A DNA stretch of 32,000 nucleotides from Trichodesmium erythraeum IMS101 (GCF_000014265.1 NC_008312.1:5880001-5912000), one strand, 5' to 3'; shown: positions 1-22,554, counted from the first letter of the stretch. Numbers and translations: made by a program. Notes: generated by a model not told the origin, from the letters alone.

Positions 1-1329
1 ACCTATGCAATGACAGAATCTATGCCTATTTGTAGTCCAGAAGTAGGTAAGGGGTTACTCAAGCGTGGCTCTGTAGGTCGCGCTGCTGGTCCGAAAGTAA
101 TTATTGGAGATGTCAAACTAGATGGAAAAGGCAAATCAGTTCTAAGTGTGCTAGAACCTTATGCTGAGGGGGAGGTAATGGTTCAAGGTGCCTGTGTGAC
201 TGCTGGATATGAGTTAAGGGAATGGATGGATTATAATCCTAATAAGGAAGCCTTTATTGACGGTTGGTTAAGGACTGGGGATAAGGGTTATAAAGATAAA
301 GATGGTTATGTTTATCTGGTAGGTCGGTTCAAAGAAATTATTAACCGAGCAGGGGAAAAAATTAGTCCGATGACAGTGGAAGATGTATTGCAGCGTCATC
401 CAGCAGTAGGTCAGGTGGTTGTATTTGCTGCCCCCCATGAACTTTTTGGTGAAGTAGTGGGAGCAGCAATAGTACCAGTTCCCAACCAGACACGACCAAC
501 TCTAGCAGCATTACGTCAGTTTGCTATGAAGCAAAAAGAACTGGAAACCCAGTATTTGCCAGAATGCTTAGTTTGGATGAATGCTATTCCTAAAGGTCTG
601 ACAGGGAAACCTGCGCGAATAGGTTTAGCCAAAAGGTTAGGAATACCTATTCTGACGACTGATGTGACAGCATCACCTCGAACTTTTGTGGCCACAAAAG
701 GAGGGGATGGTAAGTATGTTTTAGAAATATTGGAGAGTCAAATTGAGAATGGAAAAGGAAGTTGTCAGAGCTTACAACAGTTGACTGTTTATTTTACTTC
801 TAAGACAACAGAGTTTTCTTTAAGTCAGTTGTCAGAGTTTGAAGTACGCGATCGCTTTGGTACTCTCAGTCAAATCATGCCTTATGCTTTCGTCCAGTTA
901 GACACATTACCATTAACATCTGATGGAAAAATAGACCGGAAACGGTTACAAAACCCTGAGAAAGATGGTGGTTCTCAAATTGTACAACAAGGAAATGAGA
1001 CTGAGCAAAAGATTGCTGCTATTTGGAAAGAGGTACTGCAAATAGAAGAAGTTGGGATTTATGATAACTTCTTTGAATTAGGAGGTAAGTCTGTACTACT
1101 AATTCAGGTGTATGCCAAGTTACAAGAAATATTTGATATGAATAACTTGAAGGTTGTTGACTTGCTAGCTAACCCTACAGTTTATTCATTAAGTCAGTTT
1201 ATTATCAATGGCGGTACAGCAGAATCAAACAAACAGAGCCAAGTTAGTTATCAGAAGCGTTTAACTAAACGTCTCTCTAAGAAAAGTGAAAGGGGTAATA
1301 TGCGGAAAAAACTCCGTTCTCAAAAATAG
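1..1329 (+). CDS. ANL-superfamily adenylating enzyme fused to a carrier protein (A-T loading didomain); 5' end cut by the window edge
   Basis: The frame is open from nt 1: TYA precedes the listed Met, and YAMTE fits adenylation core A5. The cores appear in order: GEVMVQGACVTAGY (A6), WLRTGD (A7), GRFKEIINRAGEKISP (A8), PKGLTGKPAR (A10, Lys codon 607-609). The carrier domain spans ~997-1212 with FFELGGKS (Ser codon 1090-1092). A Lys/Arg-rich tail spans 1231-1326. Confidence 0.85.
   Translation, partial: TYAMTESMPICSPEVGKGLLKRGSVGRAAGPKVIIGDVKLDGKGKSVLSVLEPYAEGEVMVQGACVTAGYELREWMDYNPNKEAFIDGWLRTGDKGYKDKDGYVYLVGRFKEIINRAGEKISPMTVEDVLQRHPAVGQVVVFAAPHELFGEVVGAAIVPVPNQTRPTLAALRQFAMKQKELETQYLPECLVWMNAIPKGLTGKPARIGLAKRLGIPILTTDVTASPRTFVATKGGDGKYVLEILESQIENGKGSCQSLQQLTVYFTSKTTEFSLSQLSEFEVRDRFGTLSQIMPYAFVQLDTLPLTSDGKIDRKRLQNPEKDGGSQIVQQGNETEQKIAAIWKEVLQIEEVGIYDNFFELGGKSVLLIQVYAKLQEIFDMNNLKVVDLLANPTVYSLSQFIINGGTAESNKQSQVSYQKRLTKRLSKKSERGNMRKKLRSQK
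715..948 (+). other. Vestigial second adenylation C-terminal subdomain (NRPS-type A9-A10) between the complete A domain and the carrier domain
   Basis: QLTVYFTSKTTEFSLSQLSEFEVRDRFGTLSQIMPYAFVQLDTLPLTSDGKIDRKRL matches the NRPS pattern LPxYMxPxxFVxLDxLPLTxNGKxDRxxL. It has its own Lys (codon 928-930) although an A10 motif already occurs ~100 aa upstream. Confidence 0.65.
848..855. repeat. HIP1 octamer GCGATCGC (one of nine perfect copies)
   Basis: Perfect copies read at 848, 5606, 8211, 9581, 11244, 17401, 24613, 24955 and 27355, all inside coding regions. 7/8 variants (GCGATCGA) occur near 9113, 19130 and 29160. Confidence 0.9.
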
Positions 1330-1393
1330 ATAATAGGGAGTAAGGAAAAAACACAAAATTTATTTTGCTTGAATTTACCTGAAATTTAATACC

Positions 1394-1427
1394 TCTAAAA
1401 CCTAAAAGTTAAAATCTAAAACCTAAA
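1394..1427 (+). repeat. 13-nt direct repeat TCTAAAACCTAAA x2, 21 nt apart, in the loader-PKS1 spacer
   Basis: Identical 13-mers at 1394-1406 and 1415-1427, 16 nt upstream of the PKS1 ATG. The context is low-complexity, so function is unknown. Confidence 0.5.
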
Positions 1428-1442
1428 TATATAATAAAAATT

Positions 1443-4400
1443 ATGAATCAGCCAGAAGAACCACAACAATATAATGATAATGAAATTGCTATCATAGGAA
1501 TGTCTGGACGGTTTCCAGGGGCAAAAAACGTGGAGGATTTTTGGGATAATCTCAAGAATGGTGTTGAATCTATCTCATTATTATCAGATAAACAGTTGAG
1601 CAAGTCTGGTGTTGCACCCGAAATACTTAATAATCCCAACTATGTTAAAGTTAATTCTATGGTCTCAGACATCGATATGTTTGATGCTAATTTTTTTAAC
1701 TACAGTCCTAGAGAAGCAGAAGAAATAGACCCGCAACAACGACTTTTTTTAGAGTGCGCCTGGGAAGCAATAGAAAGTAGTGGTTATAACCCAGAAAACT
1801 ATGAAGGTTCAATCGGGGTATATGCTGGAGGTGGACTGCCTACCTATTTAATGTATAACCTGGAAGACCAAGATTTTATTCTACTGGGTAATCGCTACTT
1901 TACCCAAATGGTAGGTAATGACAAAGATTACTTAGCAACCCGCACCGCTTACAAACTAAATCTTACTGGACCAGCGCTCAATATTCAAACAGCTTGCTCC
2001 ACTTCATTAGTTGCAGTACATTTAGCATGTCAAAGTTTGCTCAATGGAGAATGTGACATGGCTCTGGCAGGTGGTGTTTCGATCCAAATCCCTCAAAATG
2101 TGGGATACTTACATCAGGAAGGATTGATCGGCTCTCACGATGGTCATTGTCGAGCCTTTGATGCCAGAAGTTCGGGAACAGTTTTTGGTAATGGTGTAGG
2201 AGTTGTGTTACTTAAACCACTGCAAGATGCTATAGCAGATGGAGATTGTATTCATGCTGTAATTAAGGGTTCGGCGATTAATAATGATGGTTCTTTGAAA
2301 CTGGGTTATACTGCTCCCAGTGTTGATGGTCAAGCTGCAGTTATTTCTGAAGCTCAAGCTGTTGCTAGTGTAACTCCAGAAACAATTACATATATAGAAG
2401 CTCATGGCACGGGTACGGAACTAGGAGATCCGATTGAGATTGAAGCTTTAACAAAAGCCTTTTCAGAGCATACTGATAAAAAACAATTTTGCGCCATAGG
2501 TTCCCTAAAAACAAATGTGGGACACATGAATACGGCGGCAGGGATAGGAGCATTGATTAAAACTGTTTTGACTCTCAAACATAATTTAATACCTCCCAGT
2601 CTACACTACGAAAAACCTAATCCCCAGATTAATTTTAGCGATAGTCCGTTTTACGTCAACAGTACTTTATCTGAATGGAAACGCAACGGCACTCCTCTAC
2701 GAGCAGGAGTTAGTTCTTTTGGTATAGGTGGAACTAACTCTCACGTTGTATTGGAAGAAGCTCCCAGTCAGGTTAAAGAAGAAGATGATTTGCAACGTCC
2801 CGTTCATATATTAACTTTGTCAGCTAAGACTCCAACAGCTTTAGCAGATTTAGTAGATAGTTATCATCATTATCTAGAAACTAATCTAGATTTGGATCTA
2901 GGAGATGTTTGTTACACTGCAAATACAGGAAGAGTTCATTTTAACCACAGATTAGCAGTTGTTGCTGAGAAACAAACAGAATTAACTGAAAAACTGCGAC
3001 AGTTTAAATTAGAAGATAAAGTAGAGGGTATCTGTTCTGGGAAACTGTTAATCAACGCTACTGCTCCTAAAGTCGCCTTCCTATTCACAGGTCAAGGTTC
3101 CCAATATGTTAATATGGGCAAGGAGTTATACGAACAAGCACCAGTATTCAGAGCGGCACTTGATGAATGTGAGGAAATATTAGAGGAACTGGGTGTAAAT
3201 TCTATATTAGAAATTATTTATCCTGAAGGTGGAGAGACATCACCCCTAGACCAAACAGCTTATACCCAACCTGCTATATTTGCCATAGAATACGCCCTAG
3301 CTAAATTATGGGAATCTTGGGGAATTAAACCAGATGTAGTGATGGGTCATAGTGTAGGTGAATATATAGCAGCAACAGTAGCTGGAATATTTAGTTTAGA
3401 AGATGGTCTGAAACTCATTGCAGCAAGGGGACGGTTAATGCAACAGTTACCCGCAGGTGGAGAAATGGTAGCTGTGATGGCATCAGAAGCAAAAGTGAAA
3501 AAGCTCCTCAGACCTTATGCAGAAAAAGTAGCTATCGCAGCAATAAACGGACCAAAAAGTGTAGTTATTTCTGGTGAGGCGACAGCAGTCAGGGAAATTG
3601 TCAGCAGTTTAGAATCAGAAAAAATTAAAACCAAACAATTACAGGTATCTCACGCCTTCCATTCACCATTGATGGAACCAATGTTGGCAGAATGGGAAGC
3701 AGTAGCTAAGGAACTAACTTATCATCAACCAGAGATTCCAGTCATATCTAATGTCACGGGAACAATAGCAGATAAAAGCATCACAACAGCCAAATATTGG
3801 GTAGATCATGTACGTCTACCAGTCAGGTTTGCTGAAGGTATGGATGCTTTACAGAAACAGGGCGTTGAAATTTTCTTAGAAGTCGGACCGAAACCAATAT
3901 TGTTGGGTATGGGTCGCCGATGTCTGCCTAAAGATGTAGGTGTTTGGTTGCCATCATTACGTCCTGAGCACATCCCTCTCCAGTCCTCCTTAGAAAGCGC
4001 GAGGTCAGAGGATTTTTCACAGATGCTTTCTTCTCTGGGAGAGTTATATGTGCGGGGAGTAAAGGTAGACTGGGTAGAATATGATGGAGAGTATAGTCGT
4101 CAGAAAGTAATATTACCTACTTACCCATTCCAACGACAAAGATACTGGATAGATAACTATTCGCGGGGGAGAAATTCTGTTTCAGTCAGTAGCAATAATG
4201 GTTTTGTCACTGAGGAGGGAACATCAAATCCTTTATTAGGTCGTAAATTACTTTTACCCTTTGCACAACAATTCCGCTTTCAGACTAAATTAACTCCTGA
4301 GTTTCCTTCTTATGTGAAAGACCACAGATATTACGGCAAAATAGTTGTAGCTGGTGCGTCTCACATTGTTCTTGGTCTCCTTGCTGGTAAAGAAGCACTA

Positions 4401-7172
4401 AACAGTGATTCTTGCGTTGTCGAAAATATTGAATTTTTGCAGATATTGGGAGCAGATGAAACTTCTAGTCGTACAGTGCAAATACTTCTGGATCAAGAAA
4501 AAGAAACAGAATATACTTATCAATTGATAAGTTGTGAAGCAGGAACAGAATACGACCCATCAACAGTTTGGACGGTTCACGCTAAGGCAAAAGTTCGCTC
4601 TGTTAATAACTCAGAGTTACCGAAAGAAAATATTGATATTGCAGCAGTAAAAAACCGATGTATTCAGTCTCTTTCCAGTGATGAATATTACTCAACTGCA
4701 CTGGAACCCATGAAAGGAGACTTTCACCTAGGACCGACATTTCAATGGACAGAACAAGCTTGGATAAGTAGTACAGAAGGCTTAGTCAAAGTAAAAGCAG
4801 GTGAAAACAATGAAGAGATGCAGGAATATTGGCCTCATCCGGGTATGGTTGATTCTGGAATTGTGCCAGTAGCTCTGTTGTCAATACTTAGGGAGTTGTC
4901 TCAGAATACTGAGAATAATGGTAATGGCAAAAAAAATGCCATTGATAGTGAAATGGAAATTCCTACCTACGCATTTGCTGGAGCTAAGAGCTTTAAGTTT
5001 TTTGATAATTTTGACATTGATGATGATTTGTGGTATTACACCAAAATTGACGAGTCAAGTTCTTATGATCGAGGAGAACTTCTAGGTGAGACTTACTTGC
5101 TCAATGGAGATGGCAAAGTATTAGCAGAATATAGTGGTATAGACTTCCGTCAATTAAGTCGCAAGTTATTGTTGAGGAGCTTTGGACTAGATTTCAGTCA
5201 GTGGTACTATCAAACAGAATGGCAACCTGCTGCTTTGATGCCTGGTGAGACACAGGAAACAGGAACTTATCTGCTATTTTGCCCTACAGGAGAATCAAAT
5301 AGTAAGTTAAAAGAATGGAGCGATAGCCTGAACTCCCAATTATTAGACCAAGGTCATCAATGTATTGTTGTTTATCCAGCAGATAGTTACAAAAAGTTAT
5401 CCTCTGAAGGCAAAAAACAGATAATTCAATTATCTCCAACACAACCAGAACATTTCCAAAAGTTACTTGATGAGGTAAATGAATTAACAGAAGAGTTACC
5501 TTTGAAGGGTGTTATTCACCTGTGGAGTTTAGATACAGATGTTGAGGAGTTGACAAAAACAGAAGAGATAATTTGTGGTAGTATCATTAACTTCTTGCAA
5601 GGGATGCGATCGCTAGAAAAATTACCTCCTCTTTTGTTAGTGACTCAAGGAGCTTCATTAGAAGTCAGAAGCAAGGAGTCAGGAGTCAGTATTAACGCTC
5701 AACCGCAACAAGCTCTTTTATGGGGGGTAGGCAAAGTCATAACTATGGAGTATCCGCAGTTAGACTGTCGTTGTTTAGACCTAGACCCTAATGCTGATGA
5801 ACAAGAAACTTTAAAAGTTTTACTTGATGAGGTCGCTAACCATCAGACATCAACCAGTGTGGAAAATCAAATCCGCTATTGTCAAGGAAAACGTCAAGTA
5901 GCAAGACTAACTCAACCCAGGTTAGATACTGATGCTAAGTTAGCTATTCAGACGGAAGCAAGTTATTTGATTACTGGTGGTTTAGGTGCTTTGGGGTTAG
6001 AAGTGGCTCAATTACTCGTACAGCAGGGCGTTAAGAGTATAGCCTTAGTAGGGCGCAACTCTCCCTCAGAAACCGCCCAGGAAAGTATCCAAGAATTAGA
6101 AGCAGCAGGAACTCAAGTTTCAGTATTCTTAGGGGATGTCTCTGTGGAAAAAGATATGGTTAATATTTTCCAAAAGATACAGACATCCTTACCTCCCCTT
6201 AAAGGTGTAATTCATGCTGCCGGAGTTTTAGATGACGGTTTCATACAACAAATGACTTGGCAACAATTCACAAAAGTTACTGCTCCCAAAGTTACTGGAA
6301 CTTGGAATCTACATAAATTAACAAAAGATATACCATTAGATTTCTTTGTTTGCTTCTCCTCCCTTGCATCAGTGTTAGGTTCCCCTGGTCAAAGTAACTA
6401 TGCCGCAGCTAACGCCTTTATGGATGCAGTGGCCCAATATCGTCAGAATTTAGGATTACCAGGATTGAGTATTAACTGGGGACCTTGGGCAAATGTTGGC
6501 ATCGCCGCTCGGATGGGGGCACAACAACAAGGTCGTCTACAAAGTCAAGGTTTGCAAGGGATTCAAACAGAGCAAGGGTTACAAGCTTTAGAAGAAGTAT
6601 TGGCGACCGATGAAGCACAAATAGCAATATTTAATATTGACTGGCCACACTTGTTGAGTCAGTTTGGACAGATGACTCCAGCATTTCTATCGGAAATAGC
6701 AAGTCAGCATCCACTCCAAGGTAAAGCAAATCAGGGACCTAAACAACGGGAGTTGTTAGAACAAATGAAGGTGGCAACAACTGACCAACGACAAAGGTTA
6801 ATGGTTGATTACTTGATCGGTGTTGTGGCTAAAGTATTGAGGCGGGGTAAAAATGATTTACCAGACCCAGAGGAAGGATTCTTTAATTTAGGAATGGATT
6901 CGCTGATGGCATTGGATTTTGGGCAAATGATTCAGGTTGATTTAGGTATTACTTTGTCCTCAACTTCTACTTTTGAGTATCCAAATATTCAGGCATTAGC
7001 TGAGTATCTAGAGGAAATAATTCCGAAAGTGGATGAAAAAGAGGCTGAGTATGAAACAGATGATACTGCTATTGATGCAGAAAGTCTAATTACAGAGATT
7101 AGTCAGCTTTCAGAAGACAAAATGGATGAAGCTATTGATGAAGCTCTGACTCAACTTTATCAGTTTATATAG
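1443..7172 (+). CDS. Type I modular polyketide synthase, KS-AT-DH-KR-ACP
   Basis: KS ~1479-2756: EIAIIGMSGRFPG, Cys in TACSTS at codon 1995-1997, HGTGT, NVGH. AT ~3075-3962: GQGSQ, GHSVGE Ser codon 3351-3353, and the malonyl-type signature HAFHS. DH ~4224-5162: HRYYGKIVVAGA with His codon 4323-4325, GDFHLGPTF, HPGMVDSG. KR ~5958-6497: GGLGALG, LDD motif, Tyr codon 6399-6401 in SNYAAANAF. ACP ~6795-7022: LGMDSL, Ser codon 6900-6902. An acidic helical C-terminal tail at 7023-7169 looks like a docking element. Confidence 0.97.
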   Translation: MNQPEEPQQYNDNEIAIIGMSGRFPGAKNVEDFWDNLKNGVESISLLSDKQLSKSGVAPEILNNPNYVKVNSMVSDIDMFDANFFNYSPREAEEIDPQQRLFLECAWEAIESSGYNPENYEGSIGVYAGGGLPTYLMYNLEDQDFILLGNRYFTQMVGNDKDYLATRTAYKLNLTGPALNIQTACSTSLVAVHLACQSLLNGECDMALAGGVSIQIPQNVGYLHQEGLIGSHDGHCRAFDARSSGTVFGNGVGVVLLKPLQDAIADGDCIHAVIKGSAINNDGSLKLGYTAPSVDGQAAVISEAQAVASVTPETITYIEAHGTGTELGDPIEIEALTKAFSEHTDKKQFCAIGSLKTNVGHMNTAAGIGALIKTVLTLKHNLIPPSLHYEKPNPQINFSDSPFYVNSTLSEWKRNGTPLRAGVSSFGIGGTNSHVVLEEAPSQVKEEDDLQRPVHILTLSAKTPTALADLVDSYHHYLETNLDLDLGDVCYTANTGRVHFNHRLAVVAEKQTELTEKLRQFKLEDKVEGICSGKLLINATAPKVAFLFTGQGSQYVNMGKELYEQAPVFRAALDECEEILEELGVNSILEIIYPEGGETSPLDQTAYTQPAIFAIEYALAKLWESWGIKPDVVMGHSVGEYIAATVAGIFSLEDGLKLIAARGRLMQQLPAGGEMVAVMASEAKVKKLLRPYAEKVAIAAINGPKSVVISGEATAVREIVSSLESEKIKTKQLQVSHAFHSPLMEPMLAEWEAVAKELTYHQPEIPVISNVTGTIADKSITTAKYWVDHVRLPVRFAEGMDALQKQGVEIFLEVGPKPILLGMGRRCLPKDVGVWLPSLRPEHIPLQSSLESARSEDFSQMLSSLGELYVRGVKVDWVEYDGEYSRQKVILPTYPFQRQRYWIDNYSRGRNSVSVSSNNGFVTEEGTSNPLLGRKLLLPFAQQFRFQTKLTPEFPSYVKDHRYYGKIVVAGASHIVLGLLAGKEALNSDSCVVENIEFLQILGADETSSRTVQILLDQEKETEYTYQLISCEAGTEYDPSTVWTVHAKAKVRSVNNSELPKENIDIAAVKNRCIQSLSSDEYYSTALEPMKGDFHLGPTFQWTEQAWISSTEGLVKVKAGENNEEMQEYWPHPGMVDSGIVPVALLSILRELSQNTENNGNGKKNAIDSEMEIPTYAFAGAKSFKFFDNFDIDDDLWYYTKIDESSSYDRGELLGETYLLNGDGKVLAEYSGIDFRQLSRKLLLRSFGLDFSQWYYQTEWQPAALMPGETQETGTYLLFCPTGESNSKLKEWSDSLNSQLLDQGHQCIVVYPADSYKKLSSEGKKQIIQLSPTQPEHFQKLLDEVNELTEELPLKGVIHLWSLDTDVEELTKTEEIICGSIINFLQGMRSLEKLPPLLLVTQGASLEVRSKESGVSINAQPQQALLWGVGKVITMEYPQLDCRCLDLDPNADEQETLKVLLDEVANHQTSTSVENQIRYCQGKRQVARLTQPRLDTDAKLAIQTEASYLITGGLGALGLEVAQLLVQQGVKSIALVGRNSPSETAQESIQELEAAGTQVSVFLGDVSVEKDMVNIFQKIQTSLPPLKGVIHAAGVLDDGFIQQMTWQQFTKVTAPKVTGTWNLHKLTKDIPLDFFVCFSSLASVLGSPGQSNYAAANAFMDAVAQYRQNLGLPGLSINWGPWANVGIAARMGAQQQGRLQSQGLQGIQTEQGLQALEEVLATDEAQIAIFNIDWPHLLSQFGQMTPAFLSEIASQHPLQGKANQGPKQRELLEQMKVATTDQRQRLMVDYLIGVVAKVLRRGKNDLPDPEEGFFNLGMDSLMALDFGQMIQVDLGITLSSTSTFEYPNIQALAEYLEEIIPKVDEKEAEYETDDTAIDAESLITEISQLSEDKMDEAIDEALTQLYQFI

Positions 7173-7248
7173 AATTGAGAATTTAGAATTGAGAATTCAG
7201 AATTGAGAATTAAGGAGTTAGGAGTCAGTTATCAGCTCACAGTTATTA
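7172..7248. repeat. STRR-like tandem heptamer array (11 consecutive G-N5-A heptamers)
   Basis: Reads GAATTGA GAATTTA GAATTGA GAATTCA GAATTGA GAATTAA GGAGTTA GGAGTCA GTTATCA GCTCACA GTTATTA. It starts at the last base of the PKS1 stop codon. Confidence 0.85.
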
Positions 7249-7279
7249 GTCTTGCCTAAAGATACTGAACTCCTCCACT

Positions 7280-10300: not shown

Positions 10301-11401
10301 GAAGACTTAGTTTCCCCTTCGTCAATAATAGATATTGAGAAGTTTCAAGCTGCTTCGAGAAAAGAACAGAAGTTGATGATAGTAGAGTATTTGCAAGAAT
10401 TGGCAATGAAGGTACTGCAACTGAATACTTCTGAGGTTTTAGACCCCAATGAATCTGTTCTAGAACTAGGTTTTGATTCTTTGAGCGTTGTAGAACTTCG
10501 GAGCAAAGTCGAAAAACAACTAGCAGTAACTATTCCTGCCAGCTTAATTTTGCAAGGTCCTAGCATTATGGAATTAGCAGAAGCATTGGTTGAACAATTA
10601 ACTAATAGCGGCTCATCTGACCAAGGTCCCGTTAAGAGCAAAAAAGGAAGTGGTTGGATTGCATACCACAAACCTAAACTTAATGCAAGTACCCGTTTAT
10701 TCTGTTTTCACCCATGGGGTGCTAGTGCTTCTATGTATCAACAATGGTCTGATGCTTTGCCTCCAGAAATAGAAGTTTTACCCATTCAACTACCAGGTAG
10801 GCAAAGGCGTATTCAGGAAAAACCATTTACAGATTTTGCAAGTCTAATAGAGGTTTTAGCAGATTTCCTTTCTCCTTATTTGGATAAACCTTTTGCTTTC
10901 TTTGGTCATAGCATGGGAGGGTTCATTGCTTTTGAGCTTGCCTATTTTCTGGAAAAACAATATAATTTGAAACCAAGACACTTATTTTTGAGTGGTGTTG
11001 TTCCACCATCAGACAATACTTTCTTAGAAAAAATAGGATCTCTTTCAGAAACAGAACGACTTAATTATCTTCTAGAAATTTCAGAAATTCCAGAAAGTAT
11101 TACTGAAGATTCATCCCTTTTCCATGAGTTAATGAATATCTTTAAGGCAGATTTTCAACTGTTACAAAGTTATCGTTATCTAGAGAAAAAGCCACTAGAT
11201 TTCCCAATCTCCAGTTTTAGTGGAGTAGATGATTATACGATTAGCGATCGCCAACTTAATAATTGGTCTAAGTATACTACCAGCAACCTAAAAATAGATA
11301 GGATACCTGGTAAACATATGTTTATGTTCTTGAAAGATAGCCAAAAATTACTTTTGGAGCTGATTTCTCAAGAACTTTTACCACAATTAATTGCTCAATA
11401 A
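7337..11401 (+). CDS. Type I modular polyketide synthase, KS-AT-ACP-TE (terminal module, no reductive domains)
   Basis: A helical N-terminal docking-like segment spans 7337-7444 ([22 protein letters not shown]). KS ~7445-8722: Cys in TTCSSS at codon 7964-7966. AT ~9032-9946: GHSVGE Ser codon 9338-9340, HAFHS. ACP ~10370-10600: LGFDSL, Ser codon 10478-10480. Thioesterase ~10685-11386: GHSMGG Ser codon 10910-10912, PGKHMF. GAAGGA lies 7 nt upstream of the ATG. Confidence 0.97.
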
Positions 11402-11408
11402 ATTATTA

Positions 11409-11432
11409 GGGTGCAGATTTTGCACCCTTTTT
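11409..11432 (+). terminator. Rho-independent terminator closing the PKS operon
   Basis: GGGTGCA (11409-11415), loop GATTT, TGCACCC (11421-11427), then TTTTT (11428-11432). It begins 8 nt after the PKS2 stop. Confidence 0.8.
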
Positions 11433-11723: not shown

Positions 11724-11767
11724 GCTTGTATTTATAACAAAATACAACCAAACTAGGAGAAAAAAGA

Positions 11768-12256
11768 ATGAGTGATAATTTAATCTCAAAAGATAATTTA
11801 GTTGGTACTTGGAAACTTGCTGATTTTTATACTATTGATTCAAAACAAAAAATTGCTTACCCCTTTGGTAAAAATCCTACAGGCTATCTTATATATACTG
11901 AAAATGGATATATGTCTGTGTTAATTATGACGACTAATCGCCCACTTCTTGGCCTATCAGTGGAAGAAATGCAAGATTTGAAAAGTCCTAAGTTAGGAAT
12001 AAAATTAATTGCTAATCTTGGTAAATATATTAAGGCTACTTTGAGATATTTTAGTGCTGGTAGAAATTGTCTTTCTTACAGTGGTAGGTATGAAATACGA
12101 GACAGTACAGTTATTCACCATATTGAAGTTAGCCTAGTTCCTGATTGGGTTGGTTTAGACTTTGAACGTAATGTAGAATTTTCAGAAGGCCAAATTATAC
12201 TTACTAATATGTTAAGAGATACATCCTTTAACTTAACTTGGAAACTGGTTCCTTAA
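11768..12256 (+). CDS. Small lipocalin-like (beta-barrel) domain protein
   Basis: 162-aa ORF with AGGAGA (11755-11760) 7 nt upstream of the ATG. LVGTWKL...PFGKNPTGYLIYTENGYMSV fits my recollection of the bacterial lipocalin-like domain pattern (GxW.L ... P.G..P.G.L.YT..G.M). Confidence 0.6.
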   Translation: MSDNLISKDNLVGTWKLADFYTIDSKQKIAYPFGKNPTGYLIYTENGYMSVLIMTTNRPLLGLSVEEMQDLKSPKLGIKLIANLGKYIKATLRYFSAGRNCLSYSGRYEIRDSTVIHHIEVSLVPDWVGLDFERNVEFSEGQIILTNMLRDTSFNLTWKLVP

Positions 12257-12399
12257 GATCTTTGATTAAAAATAATTTGATGTTCCATAATTAGGCAAAG
12301 TTAGAATAGTTGTATAGCCTGTTTGTTATATTTTCTGATCTAAATGCTTACCTCAATAAATATACATACAATATATAAAAAATTGTTAGAGCAATTATA

Positions 12400-13881
12400 A
12401 TGAATAATCAAATTTCTAGTAACCCAGACCAAAACTTAGAAATTGCTATCATTGGTGCTGGAATATCTGGTCTGTGTATGGCAATTAATCTCAGAAAAGC
12501 TGGCATTACAACTTTCAAAATTTTTGAAAAATCAGATAATGTAGGCGGTACATGGCACGATAATACATACCCTAGTTGTGGTTGTGATACACCATCTATT
12601 TTATATTCATTTTCCTTTGAACCTAAAAGTGACTGGACGCGACACTTTCCCAAACAACCAGAAATTCTAGAATATCTAGAACACTGTTCTAAGAAATATG
12701 ATATCAGAAAACATATTACTTTTAATACAGAAATTAGTAGCGCTTTTTTTGACTCAGAAAAAAATATTTGGCGTATTTATAGTGCCTCTGGGGAAGAATT
12801 TTCTGCGAATATTTTAGTTAGTGGTTGCGGACAATTAAATAAACCCAAAATTCCTCATCTTGATGGTCTAGAAACATTTTCGGGAACTCAATTTCATTGC
12901 GCTCGTTGGAATCACGAACACGATCTAAAAGATGAAACAGTAGCAGTAATTGGTACTGGTGCAAGTGCAATTCAGTTTATTCCTATTATTGCTGAACAGG
13001 TGAAAAAGTTAATTGTTTTTCAACGTAGCGCGCCATGGATCGCACCTAAACCAGATTTTAAATTTACAAATTTTATTCATTGGTTAGGCAAGAGTTTCCC
13101 ATTTATTCTTAGATTTTACCGATGGTTATTGTATTTAGTCCTAGAATATTTTGTTGTTTATTTAACAATAAAACAAAATACTATCGTTGGAAAACTTGTT
13201 AGTACTTTCCTCAACTTCCAAAGGGAGAAAATTATCAAAGATGAAAATCTTAAATCTATTCTAAAACCTAACTATGAAGTTGGTTGTAAGCGCATTTTAA
13301 TTTCCAATGATTATTATCCAGCTCTACAACTTCCTAATGTAGAGGTAGTTGCTCAGGATATTAAAGGGATTAATCAGAATCAAATTATTACCAAAGAAGG
13401 GAGAGAATATCCCGTAGATACTTTGATATTTGCTACAGGATTTGATACCAAACTTTTGTCCTCAATTAAAATTGTTGGTTTAAACAATCAATTGCTACAG
13501 GACAAATGGCAAGATGGAGCAGAAGCCTATAAAGGCATTATGATTCCCGAATTTCCAAATTTGTTTATGTTGTATGGACCTAATACAAATACAGGAACTC
13601 AGTCAATTATTTTCATGGTTGAATGTCAAGTTAATTACATTATTTCTTGTATCAAAATGATGCAGAATAAATCGCAGAAATATTTGGATGTGAAGCCTGA
13701 TATTAATTCTGAGTATAACCAAAAATTACAAGTTGCAGCTAGTCAAACCGTGTGGAATAGTGGTTGTAGCAGTTGGTACAAAACAAAAACAGGCAAAATC
13801 GTCAATAACTGGCCTTTTTCAACTGTACGTTATTGGCTCACAACTTCTCAAGCTGATCCCAAAGACTTTAATTTTTCTTAA
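12400..13881 (+). CDS. Type I Baeyer-Villiger monooxygenase (EthA-like class B flavoprotein monooxygenase)
   Basis: FAD fold IAIIGAGISG (12454-12471), GGTW, BVMO fingerprint FSGTQFHCARW (12877-12909, FxGxxxHxxxW), and second Rossmann motif VAVIGTGASA. There is an internal hydrophobic segment, FILRFYRWLLYLVLEYFVVYL. Confidence 0.85.
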   Translation: MNNQISSNPDQNLEIAIIGAGISGLCMAINLRKAGITTFKIFEKSDNVGGTWHDNTYPSCGCDTPSILYSFSFEPKSDWTRHFPKQPEILEYLEHCSKKYDIRKHITFNTEISSAFFDSEKNIWRIYSASGEEFSANILVSGCGQLNKPKIPHLDGLETFSGTQFHCARWNHEHDLKDETVAVIGTGASAIQFIPIIAEQVKKLIVFQRSAPWIAPKPDFKFTNFIHWLGKSFPFILRFYRWLLYLVLEYFVVYLTIKQNTIVGKLVSTFLNFQREKIIKDENLKSILKPNYEVGCKRILISNDYYPALQLPNVEVVAQDIKGINQNQIITKEGREYPVDTLIFATGFDTKLLSSIKIVGLNNQLLQDKWQDGAEAYKGIMIPEFPNLFMLYGPNTNTGTQSIIFMVECQVNYIISCIKMMQNKSQKYLDVKPDINSEYNQKLQVAASQTVWNSGCSSWYKTKTGKIVNNWPFSTVRYWLTTSQADPKDFNFS

Positions 13882-14116: not shown

Positions 14117-14122
14117 AAGGAG
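14117..14122 (+). promoter_or_regulatory. Shine-Dalgarno AAGGAG for the GTG-initiated lipase gene
   Basis: AAGGAG lies 8 nt upstream of GTG 14131. Confidence 0.6.
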
Positions 14123-14130
14123 AGATCATA

Positions 14131-15816
14131 GTGGCAACAACATATCAAACTTTACAAAAAAAACCTAAAGCACCTAAAGCACCATCAACAGAATACACTT
14201 GGGAACAGATAGTTATATCCCATATATGGATAATATACTGCATTTCATTCCCTTATTCTTATGTAGGTTCAAAAGAATATTTACAACAACTATCTACTGA
14301 ATCAGTTCAGAGAATTTTAGCTAATCCAAGAGTTAAAAAGTTGATTGGAAAATGGGAACTTGTATGGGGTATGTCTATTTATCAATTCCCAGGTTCTGGA
14401 GTGAATGACAATACACTCTACATTGCCAAGTACAATGATAACAATCCAGAAAAAGATACTTATGTTCTTTCTGTAGCTGGAACAAATATGAAGTCATTTT
14501 ACAGTATTCTTTGTGAAGACGGCGGTGTGTTCTCAACTAAAGAATGGAACAATGGTCAACCCTGGAACAGCCCACCAAACTTTCAATCTACTACTGAACC
14601 ATCAATATCTACAGGATTTACAAGGACCTTGGATAAGTTATTTAATAAGACTAAGGATAGTAATGGTACTCTTGTTATGGAAGCTCTCCAAAAAATAACC
14701 AGCAGCTCTAGCAAGCCAGTAGATTTGATAGTAGTAGGTCACAGTTTAGCTGGTACTATGTCTCCACTTGTGGCTCTAGCATTATTTGAACGTCAGTCAG
14801 AGTGGGATAGCAAAGGTATCGCTACAATCAAAGAAGTTTGGGCTATAGCCGGACCAACTCCGGGAAATCCAGCTCTTCAGGAATATTATACATCAAAACT
14901 TGGTGACAAAACTCAAAGTTTATGGTCTGAGCTTGACATTGTTCCTAATTGTTTCGCTAGGGAAGGTATGACTGGAGTGGCTAGCTTATATGAGCCTGAC
15001 ATTCCCTCTAGTCCTTTGGTTGAGATTATTATGCAGGCATTTAATAAGTCAATTGAACGTCATAACTATCAACATATCATCCCTCAGCCTGCTTATACTG
15101 GAAAGGTTAATAATGACTTCCGCATTGAAAATATTAACAAATATCCTGAAGTTAAAGAGTTTATTGCGGATCAGTGTGCTGCAATGCTACTCTACGCTTT
15201 TCTAAGTAGCTTAGAAGATATGTCTAATGTAATAGAAGACATTCCATTTGTCGGTAGAGCTTTTGAACCCCTTAAAGGTAAATTAGATTATCTCGTAAAA
15301 TCATCCACTTTTATCGTCTCAAAGTTTTTTGCTCAAGTTATTGATGCAGGTGTAACAGTAGTCCTTATTGAGGATAAAATTGAGTCAGTTTTTGAGGAAG
15401 TACTCGATCACATTGGTCTTACAGTGCCTATCTCTGTTGTTATGTCTGTTCTTCCTGGTGATTTAATTCTTGGTCATAACATTATTAATTTGATGGATTG
15501 GTATATGCAGTTCTATTTCCAGCACGTAGACCAATATGTTGGATATTATGGTGTTGATGAACTTTACGGTATCAAGGCAGATATTACAAGTGAAGTAGAG
15601 GCAAGACTTGGAAAGGAAGAGAACAAGAAGCAAGAAGCTAATACTATTCTTCTGAATTATGGTAAAGCCAAAAATGACGATATTAAAGATTTGTATCGTG
15701 GGGAAGGTAAGCTACTTGATGGAATATCTGATGTTGTTGCGGAATTGAAGCAGTCAGGTGATGTAGAGAAGAATGCACAACCTCTAGTTGTAATAGTTGA
15801 GAAAAAGAGAGACTAG
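14131..15816 (+). CDS. Class-3 (fungal-type) lipase family serine hydrolase with a ~230-aa C-terminal extension
   Basis: GTG start with a strong SD. The nucleophile elbow VVGHSLAG is at 14737-14754 (Ser codon 14743-14745), with a downstream ELDIVPN acid-residue region. The C-terminal third has hydrophobic stretches and the motif MDWYMQFYFQHVDQY (~15493-15537). Confidence 0.85.
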   Translation: MATTYQTLQKKPKAPKAPSTEYTWEQIVISHIWIIYCISFPYSYVGSKEYLQQLSTESVQRILANPRVKKLIGKWELVWGMSIYQFPGSGVNDNTLYIAKYNDNNPEKDTYVLSVAGTNMKSFYSILCEDGGVFSTKEWNNGQPWNSPPNFQSTTEPSISTGFTRTLDKLFNKTKDSNGTLVMEALQKITSSSSKPVDLIVVGHSLAGTMSPLVALALFERQSEWDSKGIATIKEVWAIAGPTPGNPALQEYYTSKLGDKTQSLWSELDIVPNCFAREGMTGVASLYEPDIPSSPLVEIIMQAFNKSIERHNYQHIIPQPAYTGKVNNDFRIENINKYPEVKEFIADQCAAMLLYAFLSSLEDMSNVIEDIPFVGRAFEPLKGKLDYLVKSSTFIVSKFFAQVIDAGVTVVLIEDKIESVFEEVLDHIGLTVPISVVMSVLPGDLILGHNIINLMDWYMQFYFQHVDQYVGYYGVDELYGIKADITSEVEARLGKEENKKQEANTILLNYGKAKNDDIKDLYRGEGKLLDGISDVVAELKQSGDVEKNAQPLVVIVEKKRD

Positions 15817-16556: not shown

Positions 16557-16725
16557 TAGGTAAAAATAGTGTAGATAGTGAATATTTATAAATTACATAT
16601 AGATTATGCAACAAAAAAAATAATAAAATTTGAGAAACCTAAGACTTTGATTGTAAATTATCCTAAGTTTAAAAATAATAGAGTTAAAGCTTTATCTTGT
16701 AGAAAGGATAAGTTATATAGAATAA

Positions 16726-16743
16726 TTGCTATATATATAGCAA
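16726..16743. repeat. Perfect 18-bp palindrome TTGCTATATATATAGCAA
   Basis: Every position pairs with its mirror. It lies ~340 nt upstream of the FMO gene. Confidence 0.7.
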
Positions 16744-16852
16744 AAAATCAATTATCAAAGCTGGTAAATCGCAATAAATAATCTTTTTAGTTGTTGACAA
16801 AAAGAAAAAATATGGGAGATTTTTTTGGTTAATTTAGATAAGACTTTTAGGT

Positions 16853-16883
16853 TATAGTTATACGCTATAGTTATACGCTATAG
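16853..16883. repeat. 13-nt tandem repeat TATAGTTATACGC x2.4
   Basis: Identical units at 16853-16865 and 16866-16878, with a partial third unit to 16883. Confidence 0.85.
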
Positions 16884-16937
16884 ATTATTCTGAATTATCA
16901 GTAAAAAATAGAAATGATTGAGGGAAAATTTGGTCAT
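16878..16937 (-). CDS. Candidate 19-codon small ORF (MTKFSLNHFYFLLIIQNNL) with a perfect AGGAGG
   Basis: On the minus strand, AGGAGG (16947-16942) is followed by a 4-nt spacer, ATG (16937-16935) and TAG (16880-16878). It is below the ORF-track size cut-off and there is no homology evidence. Confidence 0.2.
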   Translation of the reverse strand: MTKFSLNHFYFLLIIQNNL

Positions 16938-17085
16938 ATTTCCTCCTGTTTTGCTTGCCATATTTTCTCATAAAGTCTATCGTAATATCCAAAAACAAGA
17001 GTATTGACAAATAAGAAATAATGAATCATCATTATATAATGGAAATTAAATAACTCTTAAACCAAAATTTGAAAAAACTTTAACA

Positions 17086-19005
17086 GTGATGATAGAAACA
17101 AAACGAGCTATAGTCGTAGGAGCTGGATCGTCTGGTCTAATAGCAGCTAAAGAACTTTTAGATACTGGCTTAGACTTGACTATCTTAGAAAAGGAAGCAT
17201 CTTTGGGTGGTGTATGGCACAAATATTGCTGGAAGACTTCAACTCTCACTTCTTCCAAGTGGATGACAGAATATGGCTGTTACCCAGCACCAAAAGAATA
17301 TGCTGACTTTATGAAGCCAGAAGAAATGATGGAATATCTCAGCTCATTTACGAAGCATTATGGGTTAGAAGATAAAGTTCACTTTGGTGTACAAGTAAAA
17401 GCGATCGCTCGTAGCACAGATGGCAAATATGATGTAATTACTGATGGAGAAACTTACAGTGGCTACGATTATGTAGTAATTAGCACTGGATTACATGGTG
17501 AACCAGTTATTAGGGACGTTCCAGGAATAGAGAAGTTTACTGGTACTATAATGCACGGATTCAAATACAAAGACCCAGAAGCATTTCGGGACAAAAAAGT
17601 AGTGTGCATGGGTCTTGGTGAAAGTGGCATTGGTATTAGTTCTGAAATTAGCAGTGTAGCAGCTAAAACTGTTGTAGCAGCAGGTAATTTTAATTTTGCT
17701 CCCCGGGTTTATCCTTACAGTAATAAGCCTTTTGATCAAATCCAGTTCTGGCCAATGGGTCAATACATTAAGGACTACCAAGAATTATTAAGTGCCCAAA
17801 TGAGTTGGATTACTCGCCTACCAGAACCATTACGAACTGCTTATGCAAATATGCATCCCTGGTTACGCGATCTTCCTAAAGAATGGCTACCAACGGCTTA
17901 TGTTCCCCACTATTGGGCAGGTAAATACTGGCCTAAACCTAACAACAATTTTGGGGATATGAGTGGTAATTTGACCCGACCTAGTACTGCTCCTGATGAT
18001 ATTATATATTTGGTTCATAGTGGTAAGATTACAGCAAAGGGTAAGGTAGAGCGCTTTGATGAAACAGGAGTTTATTTCCCAGATGGCACCAGAGAAGAAG
18101 TTGATATGGTGGTAGCTAATACAGGGTTTAAGCCTGGAGCTGCTTTAATTGAGTTTCCTGATAACTGGCAATACCGACACCAAGAATTGTATAAAGGTTG
18201 TTTGCATCCTGATATGCCTAATCTAGCATTTGTAGGGTTTGTTAGACCTACTATCGGTTCTATCCCTGCTATGGCAGAAATGCAGTCACGGTTTGTCGCT
18301 CAAGTTTTCTCTGGTGGGTATAAGTTGCCAGAAAAAGAAAAATTGAAAAAACTAATTAAAAAAGAAGCTGATGCTCACGCTCGGAAAAATCCAAAGATGA
18401 CAGAGCGTTGGCCTCATATCTACTTTTTTGATCAATGGATGGAAGAAATGGCAGAACTACTTGGTACTCAACCTAAAATTTGGCAGCACCTAAGTTCTTG
18501 GAAGCAACTTCAGGGCTTTCTATTTGGGGCTCCGATGCCTATACGTTTTCGTCAATATGGCTCTGGAGTAGTTGCAGGTGCTAAGGAACGTTACGCTGAT
18601 AGGATTAATCAACTATATGGAACTCGCCCTCAGTCCTATATAATACCTTACCTGACAATTAGTCTTTTCTTCCCTTACATCTTATCTTTAATTATTTCTG
18701 CAGTTTGTTATTGGGGAGCTAACTTATCTCCATTAATTAGTATTGGTTCGGGTTTACTTTTCTATACTTTATATATGACAGTGGATTTATTCCGCTTTGT
18801 GGTAGGATTTTTACCGATCACATTACCTAGTCTAATGGCTCTAGAGCAAAGTCTGCCTTGGCGTAATTGTGACAATGATAGTATGATGTTTTTAATGTCT
18901 TTTCCTGAGAAAGATAGGATGAATTATGCTAATCCTAGAGTCTTTGAAAATGACGGGCTTCCTAAAAGTGAACTATTAGACCGTGAAATAGCTGTTAAAA
19001 ATTAA
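17086..19005 (+). CDS. FMO-type flavin-containing monooxygenase (class B) with a C-terminal multi-helix membrane anchor
   Basis: GTG 17086 or ATG 17089 is the start. Motifs: FAD fold VVGAGSSG, GGVW, FMO fingerprint FTGTIMHGFKY (17536-17568, FxGxxxHxxxY), NADPH fold GLGESG (17611-17628). The hydrophobic region spans 18637-18843 (about three helices). Confidence 0.85.
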   Translation: MMIETKRAIVVGAGSSGLIAAKELLDTGLDLTILEKEASLGGVWHKYCWKTSTLTSSKWMTEYGCYPAPKEYADFMKPEEMMEYLSSFTKHYGLEDKVHFGVQVKAIARSTDGKYDVITDGETYSGYDYVVISTGLHGEPVIRDVPGIEKFTGTIMHGFKYKDPEAFRDKKVVCMGLGESGIGISSEISSVAAKTVVAAGNFNFAPRVYPYSNKPFDQIQFWPMGQYIKDYQELLSAQMSWITRLPEPLRTAYANMHPWLRDLPKEWLPTAYVPHYWAGKYWPKPNNNFGDMSGNLTRPSTAPDDIIYLVHSGKITAKGKVERFDETGVYFPDGTREEVDMVVANTGFKPGAALIEFPDNWQYRHQELYKGCLHPDMPNLAFVGFVRPTIGSIPAMAEMQSRFVAQVFSGGYKLPEKEKLKKLIKKEADAHARKNPKMTERWPHIYFFDQWMEEMAELLGTQPKIWQHLSSWKQLQGFLFGAPMPIRFRQYGSGVVAGAKERYADRINQLYGTRPQSYIIPYLTISLFFPYILSLIISAVCYWGANLSPLISIGSGLLFYTLYMTVDLFRFVVGFLPITLPSLMALEQSLPWRNCDNDSMMFLMSFPEKDRMNYANPRVFENDGLPKSELLDREIAVKN

Positions 19006-22506: not shown

Positions 22507-22554
<48 letters not shown>

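Follow-up and report, generated by a model that had tools for sequence, protein, structure and literature searches.

Organization of the locus

The subject of this report is a block of polyketide synthase (PKS) and tailoring genes in Trichodesmium erythraeum IMS101, analysed within a stretch of 32,000 nucleotides (NC_008312.1:5880001-5912000) that is referred to below as the window and whose first letter is position 1. Seven reading frames are found on the plus strand between positions 1 and 19005, the first of them (ORF1) open at the left edge, and together they represent the 3′ end of Tery_3820 through Tery_3826. Tery_3821 (ABG52865, annotated as 'beta-ketoacyl synthase' in IMS101) matches the first PKS of the window (PKS1) with 100% (rounded) BLASTP identity. 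The genes after PKS1 are Tery_3822 (a second PKS, PKS2), Tery_3823 (a lipocalin-like protein), Tery_3824 (a Baeyer-Villiger monooxygenase, BVMO), Tery_3825 (a lipase with a C-terminal DUF6200 domain) and Tery_3826 (a flavin-containing monooxygenase, FMO), and the ABC1/UbiB kinase gene on the opposite strand (ubiB) is Tery_3828. Pfam E-values for most of the domains range from 1e-9 to 1e-89 (7e-15 for the dehydratase domain, PF21089), so that chance matches are of no concern. It is proposed here that positions 1-20025 are the 3′ part of a single hybrid cluster of PKS and nonribosomal peptide synthetase (NRPS) genes, Tery_3816-3826, which is induced by iron limitation. Taken as a whole, that is, cluster, assembly line and scheme of release and tailoring together, this explanation is held with evenly balanced confidence.

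A preliminary description had treated the same genes as an orphan two-module PKS with its neighbours, in a block ending at position 19005. The apparent isolation of the synthase is an artefact of the window edge. A contig from a T. erythraeum metagenome-assembled genome (L041) differs from window positions 1-17172 by 1 base (99.994% identity), with its positions 8559-10058 being 100% identical to window positions 1-1500, and it reaches 8.5 kb further upstream, where a 2551-aa PKS and a 1453-aa NRPS-like module are encoded. The assembly line holds at least four modules, and the window covers the back two-thirds of this larger polyketide-peptide cluster. Nor are the genes orphans in the literature, which already has Tery_3819-3822 as a 'cryptic PKS cluster' and Tery_3823-3826 under 'putative siderophore uptake/production'. 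At the other end the footprint of the cluster extends beyond 19005, to a decayed lipase/DUF6200 copy at 19303-20025. Scans of the region for Rfam families, tRNAs, promoters and terminators gave nothing decisive.

Induction under iron limitation

RNA-seq had been put forward as a test of whether the tailoring genes are expressed together with the PKS, and data of this kind exist in the published record. In Table S2 of Zhong et al. 2025, which contains 199 differentially expressed genes in total, the log2 fold changes (high versus low iron) for Tery_3816 to Tery_3826 are, in order, -2.31, -2.82, -2.57, -2.69, -2.83, -2.86, -2.79, -2.28, -2.53, -2.73 and -2.36, or about 5-7 fold up at low iron, and those of the flanking Tery_3815 and ubiB are each about -1.03 (PMC12090762). 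Because the fold changes are nearly equal across Tery_3816-3826 and the flanks stand at about -1.03, these genes form one iron-limitation regulon, the downstream border of which lies between the FMO gene and ubiB. The text of that study names only 'the cryptic PKS cluster Tery_3819-3822'; Tery_3816-3818 are annotated as two hypothetical proteins and 'cotSA' (PMC12090762).

Parts of the block had appeared in iron-stress datasets before. The proteins encoded by Tery_3823 and by Tery_3825-3826 were strongly up under iron stress in the work of Snow et al. 2015, where an unconventional siderophore uptake system was proposed (PMC4642986), and transcripts of Tery_3825 and Tery_3826 drop when Fe′ is added (Polyviou et al. 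2018, PMC5776111). In a metaproteome from 2025 the FMO, read as a trimethylamine monooxygenase, was enriched in colonies co-stressed for iron and phosphorus (PMC12206446). Searches for Fur boxes gave intragenic matches only: a 19-mer (GATAGTTATCATCATTATC, 2856-2874) inside the PKS1 coding sequence agrees with the Escherichia coli consensus at 16 of 19 positions (0.04 such matches are expected per window), and a weaker match to the NAT(A/T)AT repeat lies at 1471-1487, just after the PKS1 start.

Conservation of gene order

The preliminary description had assigned the tailoring genes to the PKS, and this is borne out by a gene order that is kept across diverged lineages. In Trichodesmium sp. MO_231.B1 the order is PKS1, PKS2, lipocalin, BVMO, lipase, an IS605 TnpB gene, lipase and FMO, with ABC1 on the other strand and lipases 66-67% identical to that of the window. 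The TnpB gene (OrfB_IS605/Cas12f-like) occupies positions 11880-13208 of the contig concerned (L013), between the two lipase paralogues. In Dapis, two PKS genes, the lipocalin gene and the BVMO gene share one contig, and the lipase, FMO and ABC1 genes follow each other on a second. An Okeania contig starts with a 534-aa reading frame in the position of the PKS2 end and continues with frames of lipocalin, BVMO, lipase, FMO and (on the opposite strand) ABC1 size; here the BVMO and lipase were compared directly, and the PKS2 assignment is by size and position of the frame. Finally, a TARA contig (L017) encodes AT-ACP-TE, lipocalin, BVMO and three lipase/DUF6200 proteins separated by gaps of 26-183 nt, the lipases being only about 30% identical to that of the window and the BVMO 68%. 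The FMO gene is assigned to the cluster by its synteny in four lineages and its co-regulation; the TARA contig ends before the FMO position. The tailoring genes are thus tied to the PKS by two independent lines of evidence, synteny and co-expression.

The modules upstream of PKS2

ORF1 (1..1329, plus strand; 442 aa, with Pfam AMP-binding_C and PP-binding domains) had been described as an A-T (adenylation-thiolation) loader. It consists of the final 442 residues of a 1453-aa TubC_N-C-AMP-binding-PCP protein, seen in full on L041, and is therefore the tail of an extension module with TubC_N and condensation (C) domains upstream and not a loading module. The complete protein starts with a TubC_N docking domain, which is followed by an intact C domain (HHIISDG), a short remnant resembling motifs A8-A10 of an adenylation (A) domain, an ANL ligase, a second remnant that is Asub-like and a peptidyl carrier protein (PCP) domain. 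ORF1 itself comprises the C-terminal part of the embedded ANL ligase, the remnant of the C-terminal subdomain of an NRPS A domain (...LPLTSDGKIDRKRL) and the PCP. The best solved relatives of the ANL ligase are oxalate-CoA ligases (AAE3 5ie0, 1e-76; 6qjz; Pcs60), and no StsA-type KAL chain was among the structural relatives listed for it at the 1e-20 cut-off. No ketoreductase (KR) domain was matched in the module, in which only about 130 aa separate the ANL ligase from the PCP.

The C-Ax-KAL-KR-T modules of the dolastatin 15, pyridomycin and other pathways offer a recent precedent for the embedding of an ANL ligase in an A domain that has degenerated (PMC13643306). The likeness of the Tery_3820-type module to these (Dol15D-M2, PyrG, HctF and HapC; PMC13643306) lies in an ANL ligase that follows a degenerate A domain, here the A8-A10-like remnant, and is followed by a pseudo-Asub, here the Asub-like remnant, and a carrier domain. 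It differs in that the ligase is oxalate-CoA-ligase-like and not a member of the StsA-like KAL clade, that there is no KR, and that only a short A remnant is left.

Upstream of this module on L041, the 2551-aa PKS (Tery_3819) shows acyltransferase (AT), dehydratase (DH), C-methyltransferase (cMT), enoylreductase (ER), KR and acyl carrier protein (ACP) domains in the part carried by the contig, to which the gene call adds a ketosynthase (KS). Its AT (L041 1-418) and the PKS1 AT (window 3546-3963) are 99.3% identical in DNA sequence, compared with only 70-80% between the ATs of PKS1 and PKS2, which points to modules having undergone gene conversion recently. The collinear product R-CH=CH-CO-CH2-CO-S-ACP that had been deduced from an A-T loader needs revision in R, which would instead comprise a longer polyketide and the unit contributed by the C-(A remnant)-ANL-PCP module; from the domains present, R is predicted to be a methyl-branched polyketide plus a small acid.

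Roseofilum casamattae and 'Cyanobacteria bacterium P01_H01_bin.35' carry the nearest relatives of PKS1 and the NRPS-like module, with ANL ligases that are 73-81% identical. A different front end is seen on TARA and other marine metagenome contigs (L029-L033), where an AprA_N-WH-MT2-like-GNAT-ACP loader forms one protein with a truncated C domain, and an 81-aa reading frame and a separate 734-aa ANL-PCP protein come after it; the A-PCP protein of this lineage is 83% identical to ORF1, and the loader of L033 has no intact reading frame. Such an AprA-like MT-GNAT-ACP loader fused to C, suggested by the context of one relative (P0001, 83% identical to ORF1), was considered for the region upstream of the window and rejected, since L041, which is identical to the window, differs in that region. 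The L029-L033 arrangement belongs to another lineage, rearranged and partly decayed, and a metagenome scan with the AprA-like loader returned mostly other clusters.

PKS1 (Tery_3821; 1443..7172, plus strand) has the KS-AT-DH-KR-ACP architecture previously described, each domain being recovered by Pfam at 1e-75 to 4e-14. Its motifs include TACSTS, EAHGTGT and NVGH in the KS, GHSVG and HAFH (aa 737) in the AT, LDD (aa 1596) in the B-type KR and GMDSL in the ACP. The features of a modular cis-AT type I PKS (Cys-His-His in the KS, GHSxG with a specificity motif in the AT, DSL in the ACP) are present in both PKS1 and PKS2. The DH of PKS1 is best matched by that of CurJ (6e-25), and its catalytic His and Asp are in register with those of CurJ, which makes a 2-enoyl product a reasonable interpretation. 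A heptamer tandem repeat (AGAATTG, six copies, 7170-7211) starts at the PKS1 stop codon.

PKS2 and the ACP-TE-BVMO cassette

PKS2 (Tery_3822; 7337..11401, plus strand) was confirmed by Pfam as KS-AT-ACP followed by a thioesterase (TE), with no match to a KR, DH or ER domain. The absence of any reductive domain supports the earlier view that the last module leaves a beta-keto group. The motifs are TTCSSS, ECHGTGT, NVGH, GHSVG, HAFH (aa 768) and GFDSL, and the TE nucleophile lies in GHSMG. All of the motifs quoted in the preliminary description were found, namely HAFH in both ATs and LDD in the KR, together with FSGTQFHCARW in the BVMO and GHSLAG in the lipase. The TE is matched by RedJ (3e-34), human TE2 (2e-31), RifR (1e-30) and SrfD (5e-23), and none of the macrocyclising PKS TEs of the DEBS or Pik type passes 1e-5. 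The resemblance to hydrolytic type II thioesterases favours a hydrolytic mode of release.

The relatives of PKS2 change along its length. Its KS is 80% identical to that of bin.35, 73% to that of Roseofilum and 41% to that of Nostoc sp. NIES-4103; for the post-AT linker and ACP the figures are 25% in bin.35, no real match in Roseofilum and 48% in Nostoc; and the TE has no counterpart in bin.35 or Roseofilum and is 60% identical to that of Nostoc. The matching modules of bin.35 and Roseofilum lie in mid-line, lack a TE and have no BVMO after them, and at least one of these lines runs into an ACP/KS0/HMGS/ECH beta-branching cassette. Because the KS matches bin.35 and Roseofilum while the linker, ACP and TE match Nostoc, PKS2 is a chimera in which the KS-AT of a mid-line beta-branching module has been joined to the ACP-TE of an off-loading cassette.

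A genome scan with the BVMO alignment found BVMO copies 60-63% identical to Tery_3824 in Nostoc sp. NIES-4103, Nostoc sp. MG11, Komarekiella and Desmonostoc. At the two loci for which reading frames were listed (NIES-4103 and Komarekiella) the start of the BVMO gene overlaps the stop of an upstream frame of 1335 or 1337 aa. In NIES-4103 this frame is KS-AT-ACP-TE, 50% identical to PKS2, and the line before it ends in ER-KR-ACP-C-A-PCP. Lipocalin, lipase and FMO genes are not present at the NIES-4103 locus. A 143-aa frame after the Nostoc BVMO was considered as a divergent lipocalin and rejected (BLASTP E = 0.76, no Pfam match). BVMOs of an outgroup (deltaproteobacterium, Catenulispora and Kordiimonas; 41-48% identical) were taken as unlinked controls, and the reading frames listed for the deltaproteobacterium and Catenulispora loci include no large upstream PKS gene.

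By these comparisons ACP-TE and BVMO travel together as an evolutionary cassette that was grafted onto two unrelated assembly lines, which strengthens the link between beta-keto module and BVMO drawn in the preliminary description. The sole chemistry that the Trichodesmium and Nostocales lines have in common is an unreduced 3-oxoacyl end, and of the evidence available this speaks most strongly for a BVMO that acts on the C-3 ketone.

Directly after the PKS2 stop codon lies a terminator-like hairpin (11408..11428, plus strand) whose 9-bp stem precedes a T-run. It might serve for attenuation between synthase and tailoring genes; such sites are regionally not above the count expected by chance.

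The tailoring proteins

The lipocalin-like protein (Tery_3823; 11768..12256, plus strand) was correctly recognized as such in the preliminary description, with a Pfam match to Lipocalin_5 (8e-29); it is a calycin beta-barrel protein without a signal peptide. Its AlphaFold2 model has a pLDDT of 94, and the nearest folds are Bacteroides lipocalins and fatty-acid-binding proteins (TM 0.4-0.47). No siderocalin or enzyme is among the 50 fold matches listed, the matches to fatty-acid-binding proteins and calycins being generic, and sequence and profile searches against the Protein Data Bank gave no match. The family (2460 representatives, E <= 0.001) conserves Tyr43, Arg58, Tyr104, His117 and Arg134, which fits the predicted binding of a carboxylate or a polar head group. 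An N-terminal extension of 58-69 aa that resembles a signal peptide (MKRKIW...SYA/D) is present in MO_231.B1, Dapis and a third lineage (L013 7314-8009, L018 9162-9857 and P0261) and absent from the window, Okeania and TARA (L017) copies, so that the location of the protein may differ between lineages.

The BVMO (Tery_3824; 12400..13881, plus strand; 493 aa) is a class B flavoprotein whose assignment to type I is upheld by its best solved relatives, steroid monooxygenase (1e-72) and phenylacetone monooxygenase (PAMO, 1e-68). The first BVMO fingerprint, FxGxxxHxxxW[P/D], is present as FSGTQFHCARWN (aa 160), with N in place of P/D at the final position, as is also the case in the L013 and L017 copies. 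The second, [A/G]GxWxxxx[F/Y]P[G/M]xxxD, is present as GGTWHDNTYPSCGCD, with S replacing G/M; the L013 and L017 copies read YPGCGCD. Two Rossmann motifs, GAGISG and GTGASA, are also present. Arg298 (GCKR298) aligns with the GAKR of steroid monooxygenase and D63 with its Asp, which we take to be the catalytic residues of that enzyme. Identity is 83% to the copy in Trichodesmium sp. MO_231.B1, besides the values for TARA and the Nostocales given above. These features conflict with the published annotation of Tery_3824 as 'TrkA', which was rejected.

The serine lipase with GHSLAG (aa 203) proposed earlier is a class-3 lipase (Tery_3825; 14131..15816, plus strand; Lipase_3, PF01764) with 38.7 bits against a cut-off of 22 and a match to 2ory at 3.5e-17. 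In all 8 paralogues compared, GHS205, D269 (DxVP) and H465 are unchanged. His322 lies nearer but lacks such conservation, and H465 is taken on that account as the probable His of the triad. The family is small: a word-indexed search of 5.8 billion proteins found 20 at E <= 1e-5, nine of them with both domains, and the named proteins that combine Lipase_3 with DUF6200 are all from Trichodesmium, Okeania or Dapis. No literature on DUF6200 was found.

A second lipase/DUF6200 gene, decayed and internally deleted, was recognized by tblastn at 19303..20025 (plus strand), between the FMO gene and ubiB. It is 34-37% identical to the L013 and L019 lipases over 172-178 aa, with a C-terminal fragment in addition. 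Related lineages keep 2-3 intact lipase paralogues, so that T. erythraeum has lost one. The three lipase/DUF6200 paralogues of the TARA contig (L017 4244-9598) end in Cys-containing tails (...PCFS, ...ACIDVFS and ...FDCLG) that the Trichodesmium copies lack, and a small Lys-rich DUF6312 protein is encoded after them.

The FMO (Tery_3826; 17086..19005, plus strand; 639 aa) carries C-terminal membrane helices, and its annotated start is probably the ATG at 17089. It had been called a second class B monooxygenase, in agreement with its Pfam match (PF00743, 6e-58) and its FMO motifs (FTGTIMHGFKY, GAGSSG and GLGESG); the best solved relative is ancestral FMO5 (7e-49). The published reading as trimethylamine monooxygenase (Tmm; PMC12206446) was rejected, as the protein scores 78.5 bits against a cut-off of 675 for NCBIfam NF058570. 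UniRef gives it the Bmp5-type label '4-hydroxybenzoate brominase (decarboxylating)'; if this label were true the product could be halogenated. The statement that all three tailoring enzymes carry hydrophobic segments stands in part: on the Kyte-Doolittle scale the FMO has strong C-terminal segments (aa 517-586) and the lipase moderate ones (aa 393-448), and in the BVMO only the two Rossmann strands reach the threshold.

Proposed pathway and alternative explanations

In the proposed pathway the fully reducing, C-methylating module of Tery_3819 would act first, followed by the C-(degenerate A)-ANL-PCP module of Tery_3820 with its oxalyl-CoA-synthetase-like ligase, and then by PKS1, which would probably yield a 2-enoyl intermediate. 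PKS2 would add one malonate and leave the C-3 ketone unreduced, and its cis-fused type-II-like TE would hydrolyse the 3-oxoacyl-ACP. The 3-oxo acid would lose CO2 to give a ketone, either spontaneously or within the lipocalin-like barrel, whereupon the type I BVMO would insert oxygen beside the former C-3 ketone, the lipase/DUF6200 protein would cleave or transfer the new ester, and the membrane-anchored FMO would perform a further oxidation. The net effect would be a chain end that is trimmed and re-functionalised, from an acyl end to an alcohol or aldehyde. By chemical reasoning, vinyl migration on an enoyl substituent would lead to an enol ester and hence to an aldehyde one carbon shorter than the PKS1 product, and the same logic applied to the Nostocales line would give an N-acyl carbinolamine.

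Several points weigh against this pathway. The enzyme functions and the product are predictions. If the ANL ligase loads oxalate, which lacks a nucleophile, the intact C domain would be left without an explained role. The lipases, which carry DUF6200, undergo multiplication and decay of paralogues (1-3 copies) and could be acyltransferases. The lipocalin leader in three related lineages would place the protein outside the cytoplasm, away from a role in decarboxylation. The FMO gene, which lies 1.27 kb downstream, shows far higher expression and perhaps has a promoter of its own, and the 2015 proteome lists the BVMO protein as 'observed but not Fe regulated' (PMC4642986). Ketone-to-alcohol trimming alone leaves the link to iron unexplained, and control by iron limitation is typical of siderophore clusters. 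By analogy with the BVMOs of trans-AT PKSs, which act on carrier-bound beta-keto thioesters, a methyl-ketone stage need not occur.

This last point leads to the main rival, an on-line oxidation in which the BVMO would oxidise the 3-oxoacyl thioester on the PKS2 ACP itself, giving an ACP-bound malonyl half-ester; the TE would release this and the lipase would split R-O-CO-CH2-COOH into R-OH (an enol, hence an aldehyde) and malonate, with no methyl ketone formed. Carrier-bound Baeyer-Villiger oxidation is established for enzymes of the OocK and PedG type. Its occurrence in trans-AT PKS pathways is also referred to in PMC9324945, and the common inheritance of linker-ACP-TE and BVMO, with overlapping genes in Nostocales, would fit a partnership between the ACP and BVMO proteins and fits on-line oxidation equally well. 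Tery_3824 is, however, of the free-standing steroid monooxygenase/PAMO kind and not an FMO-like Ox of trans-AT lines, and in Trichodesmium the lipocalin gene and 0.5 kb lie between TE and BVMO, with no docking element identified. This course of events is considered rather improbable. We regard as very unlikely that Tery_3823-3826 are merely neighbours of a cryptic PKS, serving iron-stress uptake or scavenging by a siderocalin and an esterase, with the FMO as a trimethylamine monooxygenase for organic nitrogen. This is how the literature has treated them (PMC4642986, PMC5776111, PMC12206446), and the distance of the FMO gene and its much higher expression, as well as the hairpin after PKS2, would agree with it. 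Set against it are the adjacency of PKS, lipocalin, BVMO and lipase on one strand, with gaps of 26-94 nt, even where the lipases are about 30% identical, the coupling of the BVMO to KS-AT-ACP-TE in Nostocales, the near-identical fold changes over 11 genes, the score of Tery_3826 against the Tmm model and the contradicted 'TrkA' reading of Tery_3824.

The remaining alternative concerns iron itself. Induction by iron starvation is a hallmark of siderophore clusters, and the published transcriptome and proteome show it here. The cluster could accordingly make a lipophilic, siderophore-like ligand, with the flavoenzymes building or exposing metal-binding groups (for example by N- or C-hydroxylation, or as an unmasked alpha-hydroxy or alpha-keto carboxylate from the ANL-loaded unit), the lipocalin binding the ligand and the lipases releasing iron or recycling the ligand. 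The low-iron induction of the whole block, the closeness of the ANL ligase to oxalyl-CoA synthetases (oxalate-type groups bind Fe(III)) and the signal-peptide-like lipocalin leader in Dapis, Trichodesmium sp. MO_231.B1 and P0261 all speak for such a ligand. On the other side, no hydroxamate, catecholate or alpha-hydroxycarboxylate machinery, receptor or transporter was found in the window or on L041, and the window has no IucD/PvdA-type N-hydroxylase and no TonB-dependent receptor; the T. erythraeum lipocalin has no leader, and siderocalins are missing from its 50 listed fold matches. A siderophore-related role was proposed by Snow et al. (PMC4642986), whereas according to a pangenome study a siderophore is predicted for none of the Trichodesmium PKS clusters (PMC9950141). 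Both an iron-chelator cluster in this sense and an iron-ligand function of the product are judged unlikely, and the pathway of hydrolytic release, decarboxylation and oxygen insertion is preferred.

Relation to known systems

A BVMO gene beside an ester hydrolase gene, acting from ketone to ester to alcohol, is known from mekA/mekB of Pseudomonas veronii MEK700 and hapE/hapD of P. fluorescens ACB. Those are catabolic operons for externally supplied ketones, and Tery_3825 differs from mekB and hapD, compared by description only, in that it is a class-3 lipase joined to a DUF6200 domain, contains hydrophobic inserts and occurs as 1-3 paralogues. The preliminary description implied that the pairing would be new in a biosynthetic setting, which does not hold, as there are precedents in aflatoxin biosynthesis and in trans-AT PKS pathways. 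In the former, MoxY (a BVMO) and EstA (an esterase) convert hydroxyversicolorone, a methyl ketone, to versiconal hemiacetal acetate and on to versiconal. The likeness is a biosynthetic type I BVMO acting on a polyketide-derived ketone, after which an esterase removes the new acyl group; the aflatoxin system differs in being fungal, in a ketone that is internal to an aromatic polyketide, and in having no TE-BVMO cassette, lipocalin or FMO partner or iron control. In epoxomicin and eponemycin biosynthesis, terminal KS-AT-(cMT)-ACP-TE modules work with the flavoenzyme EpxF, and tomato has the methylketone synthases MKS2/MKS1. These share with the Trichodesmium scheme a thioesterase that frees a 3-oxo acid and the processing of its decarboxylation product, and they differ in the partner, which is acyl-CoA-dehydrogenase-like or an alpha/beta-hydrolase decarboxylase and not a BVMO.

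The BVMOs of trans-AT PKSs (oocydin OocK, pederin PedG, toblerols; mentioned in PMC9324945) place oxygen beside the beta-keto group of an unreduced module, with subsequent shortening by ester cleavage. They are FMO-like Ox enzymes on ACP-bound intermediates, in contrast to Tery_3824, which is free-standing and follows a cis-AT terminal module with its own TE. Nostovalerolactone from N. punctiforme was examined as a possible known match and rejected, because its candidate BVMO, NvlQ, is said to resemble trans-AT PKS oxygenases, unlike Tery_3824 (PMC9324945). A further likeness is to cis-AT lines with HMGS beta-branching of the curacin/jamaicamide type: the PKS1 DH is most like that of CurJ, and the nearest relatives of the PKS1 and PKS2 KS-AT regions lie in lines that continue into an ACP/KS0/HMGS/ECH cassette. 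Unlike these, the lines of Trichodesmium, Dapis and probably Okeania end at that module, capped by ACP-TE-BVMO and without an HMGS cassette.

The concept of a BVMO with an esterase is thus not new. No product, pathway or unified cluster for Tery_3816-3826 is described in the searched literature, and as far as this literature shows, four elements count as new: Tery_3816-3826 read as a single conserved cluster for biosynthesis, PKS2 as a chimera together with the ACP-TE(II-like)-BVMO cassette as a portable unit, the module that has no KR and in which an oxalate-ligase-like domain is embedded, and the small, fast-evolving lipase-DUF6200 family including its pseudogene.

Neighbouring DNA

Downstream of ubiB an AT-rich spacer contains a microsatellite, (TTAT)15, at 22496-22556. 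It is followed by the remnant of a DPBB/RlpA-like gene with stops (22732-22947, plus strand), which is intact downstream of ABC1 in Okeania and Dapis and whose N-terminus resembles the leader of the 220-231-aa lipocalin variants. A 477-aa reading frame on the minus strand (24039-25472) matches nothing in Pfam or NCBIfam and contains a single hydrophobic segment (aa 117-142), and nothing ties it to the cluster. From 26295 to 32000 and past the right end, the plus strand encodes a secreted repeat exoprotein of giant size, at least 1902 aa long, which carries a TPS (two-partner secretion) domain at its N-terminus and also a proprotein-convertase P-domain. Tandem repeats of 60 nt (27752-27924) and of 90/177 nt (29805-30801) occur in its frame, the GC skew of which is extreme (up to 0.62), and the reading frames in other phases within 26295-32000 are artefacts.

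Significance

Trichodesmium supplies a large share of the new nitrogen in the oligotrophic ocean, where iron is often limiting, and how it copes with this scarcity is a long-standing question. Since 2015 four of the proteins encoded here have been named piecemeal in iron-stress datasets, as 'siderocalin', 'TrkA', 'esterase' and 'TMA monooxygenase', and the PKS was separately called 'cryptic' in 2025. Reading them as a single 11-gene cluster, conserved in Trichodesmium, Okeania and Dapis and with a definite, unusual off-loading chemistry proposed for it, joins these loose observations into one testable hypothesis, and the ACP-TE-BVMO cassette becomes a candidate portable device for chain-end trimming in natural-product enzymology. 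More speculatively, and with doubt that outweighs belief by a good deal, Trichodesmium, commonly regarded as making no siderophores, might with this cluster produce an iron-starvation metabolite of its own, a lipophilic hybrid of polyketide and peptide with an oxalate-like unit whose end is unmasked by the horizontally mobile ACP-TE(II)-BVMO cassette and which serves iron acquisition. If this were true, the product could be, for example, a ligand bound to the membrane or the colony, or a photoreactive chelator, that the lipocalin handles.

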